DNA of 64,000 bases, from NCBI GenBank assembly GCA_964539075.1, contig CAZIFU010000057.1, positions 22,153 through 86,152 of the forward strand. The letters are read 5' to 3'. Made by a program: the position numbers and the translations under genes. This document shows positions 58,998 through 60,906 of this stretch, one piece after another. The notes under the pieces were generated by a model. It did no database searches and was not told where the DNA came from. It saw nothing but the letters and a program-made list of their open reading frames with translations. Position 1 is the stretch's first letter. Each line of letters begins with the position of its first letter. The DNA comes from an uncultured Verrucomicrobiota bacterium (lineage in GTDB: Bacteria; Verrucomicrobiota; Verrucomicrobiia; Limisphaerales; CAZIFU01).

Positions 58998-60906
58998 TCA
59001 ATTTCAACTCCGGTTCAACCCATTTCCCGTGTTCGCGAATCAAATCCACGAGGCGCTCCACGGCTTCGGCTTCAGGGATGTTGAATTTGATCGGCGTTTT
59101 GCCGACGTAGAGGTTGATCTTGCCCGGCGCGCCGCCCACGTAGCCGAAGTCTGCGTCGGCCATTTCGCCGGGGCCGTTGACGATGCAGCCCATGATCGCG
59201 ATCTTCACTCCCTTGAGATGCTCGGTGCGCGTCTTGATGCGCGCGGTGACGGTCTGGAGGTTGAACAGCGTCCGCCCGCACGACGGGCACGCGACGTATT
59301 CGGTCTTGAACGAGCGGCAACCGGCGGCTTGCAGAATGTTGTAGGCCAGCCGCAGCGATTGGCCCGCGCCCGACTCGCCACGAACCAAAATCGCATCGCC
59401 AATGCCGTCGGCGAGCAGCGACCCGATGACGACTGACGCGCGGAGCAAAGCGATCTTTGCTTCAAGCGGCCAAAAATTCCCCTCGCCCGATCCCGCCTTG
59501 CGGGACACCCTCTCCCCATCAGATGGGGAGAGGGACGGGGTGAGGGGTTGCGTCGTCTCAATTCCGAAGTTCAAACAATCCTTCAACAAAATCGGATTGT
59601 TGCGGCCAAGCCGTTTCAATTTCGCGGCGAGCAGACGAAACGCCGTGATGGCCGGCAGATTCACGCCGTCCTGGACCGTGACAAGTTGTGTGTCGCAGTT
59701 CACGACGAAGTCGGTCGTGGGATCCACTTCACAAACATTCAGGTCTTCGTAAATCGCCTCCGGCTTCACGTCGTCCTTCGGGCGAATTCTGGGGGCGACT
59801 TTGTCCCACGTGGCGCGCGTCACGACCACGCGGACGGTTTGTTCGCCGCCACATTTGACATTGTCGTTCAGTTCGATTTCGGGCGTGGCCCGGCGCTCGA
59901 AATGGAACGGGTCGAAGGGAAACGCAGGAGACGACGTGAGGAGGCTCTGATCAATTTCGGATTTTGAAGTGAGTCTCCTTACGTCGTCTCCTACGGTCAG
60001 TTCCGGAATCTGCGCCAACAGATCGCGGCACACTTCGATCTCGCGCGGGCTGTCTTCGGTCAGCGAGACACGGATGGTGTCGCCCAGGCCGTCGCACAGC
60101 AGCGAGCCGATGCCAATGGCGCTCTTGATGCGGCCATCTTCGCCTTCGCCCGCTTCGGTGACACCGAGATGGATCGGGTAATTCCAATCCGGCCCTTCCT
60201 GTTCCAACCGCGCCACCAGCAGCCGGTAGCACTCGATCATCACCTTCGGGTTGGACGATTTCATCGAGAACTTGAAGTTGTGAAAATCGTTCCGGCGCGC
60301 GATGCGGGCAAACTCCAGCGCGCTCTCGACCATGCCCAGCGGCGTGTCGCCGAACCGGTTCATGATGCGGTCGGAGAGCGAGCCGTGGTTGGTGCCGATG
60401 CGCAGGGCGCGGCCAAGTTCCTTGCAGAGCTTCACCAGCGGCGTGAATTTTTCCTCGATGCGCTTCAACTCGGCGGCGTATTGCTCGTCGGTGTATTCCT
60501 TGATCGCGAATTTCTTGGAGTCGGCGTAGTTGCCGGGGTTGATGCGGACCATCTCGACCCACTTCGCCGCTTCCATCGCGGCGTCGGGTTTGAAGTGAAT
60601 GTCCGCGACGATGGGCACCAGGCAGCCGCGCTGGCGCAACCCGGCGACGATGTGTTGCAGATTGGCCGCGTCCTTCACCGTGGGGGCGGTGATGCGCACG
60701 ATCTGGCAGCCGACCGCGACGAGGTCGAGCGTCTGTTGGACGCACTCGGCGGTGTCCATCGTGTCGCAGGTGAGCATGGACTGCAGAACGACCGGGTGGT
60801 CGCCGCCGAGGATGACGCCGCCGCGCGCGGGATCGCCGACCATCACTTCGCAGCTCTTGCGGCGGTGATGGAAGAACGGGGATTGGCAATACCGCATGGG
60901 CATCAC
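58975..60906 (-). CDS. ispG: 4-hydroxy-3-methylbut-2-enyl diphosphate synthase (long form with insertion domain)
   Basis: ORF 643 aa (GTG 60906 or ATG 60903). Motifs VVLQSMLTCDT, IVRITAPT, RINPGN, GVTEAGEGEDG, CPSCGRT, IMGCIVNGPGE. Confidence 0.92.
   Translation of the reverse strand: MMPMRYCQSPFFHHRRKSCEVMVGDPARGGVILGGDHPVVLQSMLTCDTMDTAECVQQTLDLVAVGCQIVRITAPTVKDAANLQHIVAGLRQRGCLVPIVADIHFKPDAAMEAAKWVEMVRINPGNYADSKKFAIKEYTDEQYAAELKRIEEKFTPLVKLCKELGRALRIGTNHGSLSDRIMNRFGDTPLGMVESALEFARIARRNDFHNFKFSMKSSNPKVMIECYRLLVARLEQEGPDWNYPIHLGVTEAGEGEDGRIKSAIGIGSLLCDGLGDTIRVSLTEDSPREIEVCRDLLAQIPELTVGDDVRRLTSKSEIDQSLLTSSPAFPFDPFHFERRATPEIELNDNVKCGGEQTVRVVVTRATWDKVAPRIRPKDDVKPEAIYEDLNVCEVDPTTDFVVNCDTQLVTVQDGVNLPAITAFRLLAAKLKRLGRNNPILLKDCLNFGIETTQPLTPSLSPSDGERVSRKAGSGEGNFWPLEAKIALLRASVVIGSLLADGIGDAILVRGESGAGQSLRLAYNILQAAGCRSFKTEYVACPSCGRTLFNLQTVTARIKTRTEHLKGVKIAIMGCIVNGPGEMADADFGYVGGAPGKINLYVGKTPIKFNIPEAEAVERLVDLIREHGKWVEPELKLSEAQSLS
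59508..59547. repeat. GGGGAGAGGG-type hairpin (same as the MITE termini) in frame inside ispG
   Basis: ccctctccccatcagatggggagagggacggggtgagggg. Encodes QPLTPSLSPSDGERVS on the coding strand. Confidence 0.85.
59926..59992. repeat. Second palindromic element in frame inside ispG (argD-type family)
   Basis: aggagacgacgtgaggaggctc (59926-59947) vs gagtctccttacgtcgtctcct (59971-59992). Shares the core cgacgtgaggaggctc with 10513-10585. Confidence 0.85.

Follow-up and report, generated by a model that had tools for sequence, protein, structure and literature searches.

A GTAG-tagged REP doublet in ispG of an uncultured Verrucomicrobiota bacterium is probably a REPIN of a RAYT-linked family

The palindrome in ispG

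We analysed a palindrome inside the ispG gene on a 64,000-nt stretch of DNA, hereafter the window, from an uncultured Verrucomicrobiota bacterium (contig CAZIFU010000057.1). The palindrome is very probably a REP doublet forming a hairpin (REPIN): two inverted repetitive extragenic palindromic (REP) sequences with their GTAG ends outward and a short spacer, mobilised in trans by a REP-associated tyrosine transposase (RAYT). The host gene and the parts of the element are as follows.

58975-60906, minus strand: host gene ispG (gcpE), long three-domain form, Pfam GcpE match at E 1.9e-120
59924..59947, plus strand: left REP of the ispG REPIN, GCAG GAGAC GAC GTGA GGA GGCTC, with a degenerate tag (GCAG)
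59948..59970: spacer (loop) of the ispG REPIN, 23 nt, TGATCAATTTCGGATTTTGAAGT
59971..59994, minus strand: right REP of the ispG REPIN, minus-strand sequence GTAG GAGAC GAC GTAA GGA GACTC

The imperfect palindrome extends over 59923-59995, with the GCAG end at 59924 and the CTAC end at 59994. A first-pass annotation of the window had described 22-nt arms at 59926-59947 and 59971-59992. This palindrome is real and has two mismatches, and the in-frame ispG reading given for it, GDDVRRLTSKSEIDQSLLTSSPA, is correct. The REPIN encodes residues ~305-328 of IspG, and the first Pfam stretch of the protein ends at residue 300. AlphaFold2 prediction of IspG with 49 close homologs gave a predicted local distance difference test score below 50 across residues 277-547, and the model is therefore uninformative on the position of the insert. 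The longest open reading frame (ORF) of ispG starts 21 codons upstream of the start in an identical database protein (P0001, 622 aa).

A related element is located in a second gene of the window.

9669..11099, plus strand: argD-like class-III aminotransferase gene, Pfam match interrupted at the REPIN
10513..10585: argD REPIN, perfect 24-nt arms GTAGCAGCCGACGTGAGGAGGCTC at 10513-10536 and 10562-10585, 25-nt spacer

The true start of argD is probably downstream of 9669. As first reported, the elements in ispG and argD have a common core, CGACGTGAGGAGGCTC, and this 16-mer is identical in both. The argD REPIN is translated in frame as SSRREEAHSSHLNSSQSLLTSAAT, and the downstream arm is read as SLLTS in both genes. 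A two-arm search pattern matched the window at these two places only (ispG and argD), compared with 0.00 matches expected from shuffles. Both copies have a TGA in the spacer on the antisense strand. The loops have the lengths originally given, 23 and 25 nt, but they do not differ completely as had been stated, since on the sense strand of each gene the spacers have the common ends A[TC]TTC ... [AG]TCA. The loop type of the ispG REPIN also accompanies copies in unrelated genes elsewhere (loci L074 and L071).

Size and dispersal of the family

One genome per GTDB species was scanned with the pattern GACGTRAGGAG-N18-48-CTCCTYACGTC. At least 114 loci matched, nearly all of them in metagenome-assembled genomes (MAGs) of Verrucomicrobiota (Pedosphaera, Limisphaerales and unnamed lineages). 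The family counts used here (113 pattern-defined copies and 126 doublets) were drawn from the DNA of the matches listed. GTAG stands directly outside each arm in the 113 pattern-defined copies. When the fetched DNA was searched with a relaxed single-arm pattern, the inverted, GTAG-outward arrangement was found in 127 of 135 neighbouring arm pairs, and true singletons were few. The long hairpins of doublets have z scores of -6.4 to -9.2.

Among the matches listed, several MAGs have at least 3 to 7 loci each with similar spacers. Spacer pairs more than 0.5 similar made up 15% within genomes and 0.3% between genomes, as expected if the whole doublet is copied. There was no target-site duplication, identical flanks of 2-8 nt being at or below chance in 126 copies, and the flanks show a preference for YY before GTAG and RR after CTAC. 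The earlier proposal of a mobile palindrome family is supported. Typical copies, accompanied in L036 by the RAYT, were also seen on MAG contigs with labels of unrelated genera, namely Bifidobacterium (L003, L018, L042, L046, L052), Klebsiella (L076) and Akkermansia muciniphila (L029, L036); the genus labels or the binning of these eight look unreliable.

The single REP is a small covarying hairpin

Each REP is a 24-nt unit of GTAG, an 8-position stem, a GTRA (GNRA-type) tetraloop and the returning stem, ....((((((((....)))))))). The stem has a 5-bp outer part (5-9 with 20-24), tandem G·A/A·G pairs (10·19, 11·18) and a closing C-G pair (12-17), with the tetraloop at 13-16. The four tag positions are conserved in 226 arms at G 98%, T 91%, A 96% and G 98%. 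Arm positions 5-9 and 21-24 were left free by the search pattern, and covariation was read there. Pair 6-23 within an arm is A-T in 129 arms and C-G in 80, pair 8-21 is C-G in 180 and A-T in 21, and pairs 7-22 and 9-20 are almost invariably G-C and C-G. Changes on both sides were seen at five stem pairs, and variants exchange C12-G17 for G12-C17 (GAG-GTRA-CGA). The covariation score was 0.343 for 95 distinct arms, compared with 0.099 for shuffled arms (0/500) and 0.04-0.11 when the partners were slid. In related REPs beside RAYT genes, the G·A pairs (10·19, 11·18) are replaced by Watson-Crick pairs (GCC/GGC, GTC/GAC, GAC/GTC) and the GTGA/GTAA loop is always kept. The first-pass annotation had proposed a check for covariation in the stem of the palindrome; covariation is strong, but it lies within each arm. 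What is conserved is the small REP hairpin of the single arm and not the long palindrome.

Palindromes from Flavobacterium (L001 2656-2722 and L058 942-996) have the core C-GAC-GTAA-GGA-G with the tag TGTCA in place of GTAG and a different covarying 5-bp outer stem (ATTTC/GAAAT, ATTCC/GGAAT). They may represent a distantly related form of this hairpin outside the Verrucomicrobiota.

Mismatches between the ispG arms

Including the tag, the two ispG arms differ at three positions. Both mismatches of the 22-nt arms are, as described before, C-to-T changes: the complement of the left arm has C where the right arm has T. The first-pass annotation had pointed out that they could pair as G:U on one strand only. 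This holds for these two on the plus strand, but the third mismatch (59925 C/59993 A) wobbles on the minus strand only, giving a ratio of 2:1. Any transition confined to one palindrome arm can wobble on just one of the strands, the other having A·C, and the prior probability that two of them share a strand is therefore 0.5. Across the 37 intragenic copies, wobbles were counted 12 times on the sense and 8 times on the antisense strand, and a further 18 arm differences were transversions; a strand-specific meaning of the G:U pairs is not supported.

Mismatch 1 (G versus A) falls on arm position 15, the variable R of the GTRA loop. In 113 doublets this position in the two arms was GG in 65, AA in 14, AG in 19 and GA in 15, which is near independent assortment, while other variable arm positions agree between the arms in ~90% of copies. 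Mismatch 2 is at arm position 21 and is unpaired with A8 in both ispG arms (in the left arm, A8 faces G21); it is decay, not conservation. The strand asymmetry of the G:U pairs is uninformative. With its GCAG tag, three arm mismatches and an 8-21 pair broken in both arms, the ispG element is an older copy in decay.

Folded as RNA, the ispG palindrome had an energy of -48 kcal/mol on the plus strand (z -7.7), with two mismatches paired as G:U, and of -42.2 kcal/mol on the minus (sense) strand (z -7.9), with the two internal mismatches unpaired. As single-stranded DNA with DNA parameters, the plus and minus strands gave -24.4 and -22.3 kcal/mol.

RAYT genes flanked by REPs of the family

When ORFs of the at least 114 loci were clustered for a recurrent neighbour, no RAYT appeared. 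One was found with a RAYT profile built from the RAYT/TIRYT alignment of PMC3733652 (Additional file 5) and run on six-frame ORFs of the fetched loci. The 189-aa ORF at L036 3255-3821 matched the profile at E 2e-26, and doublets of the same family lie on both sides of it. This protein has more than 1000 database homologs, many of which were named 'REP element-mobilizing transposase RayT' by JGI. A set of 88 RAYT loci was examined, among them seven found by protein identity and 80 more from metagenomes. All 7 RAYTs scanned from these 88 loci matched NCBIfam NF047646 over the full length (E 1e-14 to 1e-19), and the HUH motif (PDHLHL) and the catalytic Tyr (CFYTLxNPVR) are invariant, with PDH-L-H and CFY..NPVR unchanged in 30 RAYT sequences. 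GTAG hairpin REPs lie within 350 nt of the RAYT gene on both sides at 65 of the 88 loci, on one side at 17 (many of these contigs are cut) and on neither at 6.

The REP subtype follows the RAYT clade, with identities of 0.74-0.75 within a type and 0.60-0.66 between types. The argD arms have the signature GTAGCAGCC...GGCTC and the ispG arms GTAGGAGAC...GACTC. The argD arm GTAGCAGCCGACGTGAGGAGGCTC flanks RAYTs at L166, L175, L183, L184, L187, L190, L191, L195, L196 and L200, and the exact 24-mer of the ispG right arm, GTAGGAGACGACGTAAGGAGACTC, flanks RAYTs at L177, L189 and L199. As the two arm subtypes flank different RAYT clades, the copies of the window belong to sister subfamilies; the view that ispG and argD host the same palindrome is not upheld. 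In assemblies BJHT01 and JACRQF01, a dispersed copy matches the REPs at the RAYT of its own genome.

In several RAYT genes, a REPIN of the cognate family is itself inserted in frame beyond the catalytic-tyrosine region (...VAADVRRRTG...SASSRRRL...):

L120, 1936-2050, in the RAYT gene at 1501-2208
L139, 1942-2011
proteins P0193, P0195, P0196, P0204, P0208 and P0213

Directly upstream of the RAYT gene at L146, more than 20 REP units with three alternating stem variants form a tandem array (1-1060 and 1757-2003).

Two other candidates were rejected as partners of the ispG/argD REP family. The candidate transposase at L031 is an ordinary IS200-like TnpA. The L061 ORF at 4804-5547 encodes a Y1 transposase of another type (Pfam Y1_Tnp, E 2.9e-7) and is flanked at 4542-4600 and 5548-5610 by a different GTAG REP (GTAGCGCAGACTTCCAGTCTGCTG...). 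As this transposase has a different REP of its own, these genomes hold several RAYT-REP pairs.

Copies inside genes

Genic copies were called with a self-trained codon model, which required an open frame and coding signal on both sides. By this measure 37 of the 126 doublets (~29%) lie in frame inside long ORFs. Pfam domains were found in 18 of 20 host ORFs tested, and a single match often spans the insert. Hosts with domains include class-III aminotransferases, a POT transporter, GCV_T, Nuo51 (NuoF), a P-type ATPase, MmeI-type enzymes and DnaE (L072). Same-strand coding directly on both flanks was seen in just 6-7 of the 79 other assessable copies. Three REPIN copies are visible for the source genome, all within the 64-kb window and all in frame inside genes, the third belonging to a sister family.

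7711..7788: argJ REPIN, sister family, third in-frame copy, in argJ (7348-8772, plus strand)

Its arms are GTGG CTGCGAAC GTGA GTTCGCGG and GTGG CTGCGTTC GTGA GAACGCGG, and its in-frame translation is VAANVSSRLISSPAVKSHPRSHERSHG. There are 4 differences between the two arms, yet each keeps its own hairpin with 8/8 positions paired and a GTGA loop.

Among the intragenic copies, the upstream arm is read as VAADVRRL in 15 and as SSRREEA in 22, and never in the frame that contains TAG. The downstream arm is read as SLLTSAAT in 19, EPPHVGCY in 16 and ASSRRLL in 2. The length from GTAG to CTAC falls in all three classes modulo 3, which are spread equally inside and outside genes. Where spacers are asymmetric, the orientation that puts TGA first occurs 4 times, all with the TGA out of frame, and the opposite one 14 times. 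The first-pass annotation had suggested an insertion mechanism or selection that preserves open frames. Open frames are preserved, with 37 of 126 copies in frame and just 6-7 non-genic copies flanked directly by same-strand coding sequence, but lengths, frames and orientation speak against a mechanism of insertion that keeps the frame, and a frame-preserving insertion unit was rejected on the length distribution. Since all stop-free frames are used and orientation tracks the avoidance of stops, the pattern is that of a selective filter acting on a nearly stop-free sequence. The arms are nearly free of stops, the sole one being the TAG within GTAG when read in a particular frame of the three. 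Purifying selection would leave only the copies that keep the frame and sit in tolerant linkers. In ispG, the tolerant linker would be the junction of the TIM-barrel part and a lineage-specific inserted domain.

Turnover at two linker sites of IspG

The site of the window REPIN (site 1, residues ~305-328) was compared in 120 IspG homologs of 81-100% identity plus the query. The same REPIN family is present in 56 of 121, a short linker in 18 of 121, and the rest hold six or more other peptides derived from repeats. Among orthologs of 81-89% identity, no fewer than seven types of peptide alternate here. In the DNA of four orthologs, codons ~300-335 have the following occupants.

L202: argD-subtype REPIN
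L203: argJ-type family
L204: another GTAG REP
L205: no REP

The occupants begin at the same nucleotide or at most one codon away (ACC followed by GTAG in the window and L202, ACC followed by GTGG in L203, ATG followed by GTAG in L204). A second site (site 2, residues ~447-475) occurs among orthologs in empty and filled states, both clean, and also holds unrelated repeats. In L204, site 2 holds the same REPIN family as site 1 of the window. The window itself has here a short palindrome of another repeat family, CCCTCTCCCC...GGGGAGAGGG.

59508..59534: short palindrome CCCTCTCCCCATCTGATGGGGAGAGGG, other repeat family, ispG site 2, read ...LSPSDGER...

On a neighbour-joining tree of IspG, the site-1 states required 50 changes compared with 61 for shuffled states (minimum 55). 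The tree is poorly resolved, and the signal on single versus repeated insertion at site 1 is weak. One tentative idea, to which we give rather less than even weight, is that the IspG linkers are REP landing pads, which successive GTAG-REP families re-colonise or convert in situ. If so, RAYT insertion would be targeted to resident REP/GTAG sites, and REPINs would steadily generate linker diversity in essential proteins, including the gene of the RAYT itself. The short linker of L205, NSKVQITDKE, resembles the spacer of the window REPIN, TSKSEIDQ; the DNA similarity was matched by 237 of 5000 shuffles and is suggestive only. A further possibility is that this empty linker and the REPIN spacer are homologous. 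In that case, either both 24-nt arms would have been lost precisely or a REPIN would have arisen when the native linker was captured.

Weighing of the explanations

The REPIN reading of the ispG element rests on what was observed directly: the architecture of the doublets, the covariation, the linkage to RAYT genes in relatives and the in-frame copies in genes. RAYT, the REP-associated tyrosine transposase of the HUH/Y1 type, would act on REPINs as non-autonomous units. By analogy with E. coli TnpA-REP and IS200/IS605, it would recognise the folded REP and GTAG on single-stranded DNA and would cut and rejoin without target duplication, and the doublet would move as one unit, spacer included. 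The chemistry of transposition is thus proposed by comparison with these systems, and an active RAYT may still be present in the source genome.

Several points weigh against this reading. No RAYT gene lies within the 64-kb window. The RAYT matches to NF047646 score under its curated 80-bit cut-off, and Pfam Y1_Tnp missed the L036 protein at E 0.01. The linkers of the element-free orthologs (L083 argD, which is without the REPIN, and L205 ispG) differ beyond a clean insertion and do not mark its exact boundaries or target. The hairpin of a lone arm is marginal in the nearest-neighbour model, at -2.1 kcal/mol for the argD arm and 0 to -0.9 kcal/mol for the ispG arms, the left ispG arm alone having no fold in the energy model. 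The single-arm hairpin is thus backed by covariation and not by energy, and its sheared G·A / GNRA fold is a probable one. The last 12 rows of the alignment (A2) were gathered with a structure-aware filter.

A functional structured RNA transcribed from the plus strand, antisense to ispG and with its G:U-compatible mismatches under selection, would be in keeping with the slightly better fold of the plus-strand RNA (-48 versus -42.2 kcal/mol). We consider it very improbable, given that the third mismatch wobbles on the opposite strand, that intragenic wobbles are not more frequent on the antisense strand (8, compared with 12 sense), that the G/A site is a loop position in a structure covarying within arms, and that dozens of unrelated genes, as well as non-coding DNA, hold copies in either orientation; an Rfam scan of the window matched no family. 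About equally improbable is a classical miniature inverted-repeat transposable element, in which terminal inverted repeats derived from an insertion sequence (IS) are moved by a DDE transposase. Such elements are likewise short, palindromic, multi-copy and devoid of coding capacity, but 126 copies gave no target-site duplication of 2-8 nt, the arms have a GTAG tag and an internal covarying hairpin, and the gene consistently found between arms is an HUH/Y1 RAYT and not a DDE enzyme.

The genic copies could also be of REPIN origin but kept for a use by the host, such as ribosome pausing at domain boundaries by a strong mRNA hairpin, or the binding of gyrase or IHF to the DNA. Both ispG sites border the inserted domain, and in most orthologs some repeat family occupies them, and the arms are still recognisable in 56 of 121 orthologs. 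We nevertheless regard this as unlikely, if less so than the two preceding explanations: at site 1 a short linker is found in 18 of 121 orthologs, and many have an empty site 2, so the REPIN is dispensable, and the occupants are unrelated repeat families and the host genes functionally unrelated. A conserved protein module (...SLLTSAAT..., for example) that is selected as a peptide, as opposed to mobile DNA, agrees with the SLLTS reading of the downstream arm in both genes of the window, but it is already refuted by frame usage, the upstream arm being read in two frames and the downstream arm in three across the family. Moreover, 89 of 126 copies fall outside the in-frame intragenic class, and most of the assessable ones among them are in non-coding contexts.

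Relation to known REP systems

REPs, REPINs and RAYTs were defined in Proteobacteria (PMC3116915, PMC3479197). Like the systems known there (E. coli REP/BIME, the latter for bacterial interspersed mosaic element, with TnpA-REP, and Pseudomonas fluorescens GI-GIII), the present family has a GTAG tag followed by a hairpin, spaced inverted doublets forming a long hairpin, probably many dispersed copies, no target duplication and RAYTs flanked by their own REPs with HUH and Tyr motifs. It differs in phylum and REP sequence, in the tandem G·A pairs and the conserved GTRA tetraloop, and in RAYTs that score under the NCBIfam equivalog cut-off. In contrast to classical extragenic REPs, ~29% of the Verrucomicrobiota doublets are in frame inside genes. 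With IS200/IS605 the family shares the enzyme superfamily, the probable recognition of imperfect hairpins on a single strand and the absence of target duplication (PMC3479197), whereas RAYT is outside the moving unit and typically single-copy, and the unit is a non-coding doublet of 65-97 nt.

Di Nocera et al. 2013 (PMC3733652) divided REPs into GTAG and CGTC super-families and reported intragenic GTAG REPs in Opitutus terrae, families GTAG-17 to GTAG-20 (BMC Genomics 14:522). Over half of the inserts reported there are dimers that encode 20-30 residues, and some genes hold two (PMC3733652). O. terrae belongs to the same phylum, and there too in-frame dimers lie in many known genes, including DNA polymerase (compare DnaE in L072), and sometimes twice in one gene, as at the two ispG sites. 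The REP sequences differ, the peptides there (among others VGPALAAG and GTGVPPV) are unmatched here, and 'LLTS' and 'RREEA' are absent from the published table (PMC3733652). The present family occurs in MAGs of the Pedosphaerales/Limisphaerales type, and hot-spot turnover at one codon position is not described for O. terrae. Rickettsia palindromic elements (RPE), to which Di Nocera et al. likened the O. terrae inserts, are also in-frame palindromic inserts in functional, even essential genes, translated as extra surface segments (PMC3733652). The intragenic RPE-4 and RPE-6, however, are CGTC-tagged and not GTAG REPs, and RPE-1 is a longer palindromic insertion (PMC3733652); the resemblance is functional only, and no sequence relationship is expected.

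Intragenic GTAG REP dimers are therefore already known in the phylum from O. terrae, and the ispG/argD family belongs to a known class. A literature search of incomplete coverage found no paper on the ispG/argD-type REPIN family. The new details are the G·A/GTRA hairpin architecture, the REP subtypes that diverge together with their RAYTs, the pair of REP hot spots in IspG and the RAYT genes with an in-frame copy of their own REPIN. An apparent strand-specific signal is traced to a known phenomenon, together with the reason why it is uninformative, and a well-defined REPIN family with cognate RAYT clades is added to a phylum where such systems are barely described. About a quarter to a third of the copies lie in real enzymes, among them IspG, ArgD, ArgJ, DnaE and NuoF. 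For annotation, the repeats account for differences in length, for interrupted Pfam matches and for small ORFs that are spurious (MSLLTSAAT...) in Verrucomicrobiota genomes, and the ispG hot spots offer a natural series for REPIN turnover at one orthologous coding position.

Other repeats of the window

The second repeat family of the window (CTCTCCCC-N-GGGGAGAG, read as ...SPSDGER...), which occupies ispG site 2 at 59508-59534, occurs also at 1812-1834, 1905-1927 and 5864-5886. At least six more palindromic repeat families are present, making the window unusually rich in such elements.

1665-1744 and 5974-6053: palindromic repeat
39510-39599 and 41705-41804: palindromic repeat
14055-14125: palindromic repeat
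9660-9748: palindromic repeat
4339-4447: palindromic repeat
38383-38451: palindromic repeat
55197-55292: palindromic repeat

These include a pair of 34-nt arms with 94% complementarity that occurs twice and an AACATCC tandem/inverted block. The repeat at 9660-9748 is located immediately upstream of the likely true start of argD.

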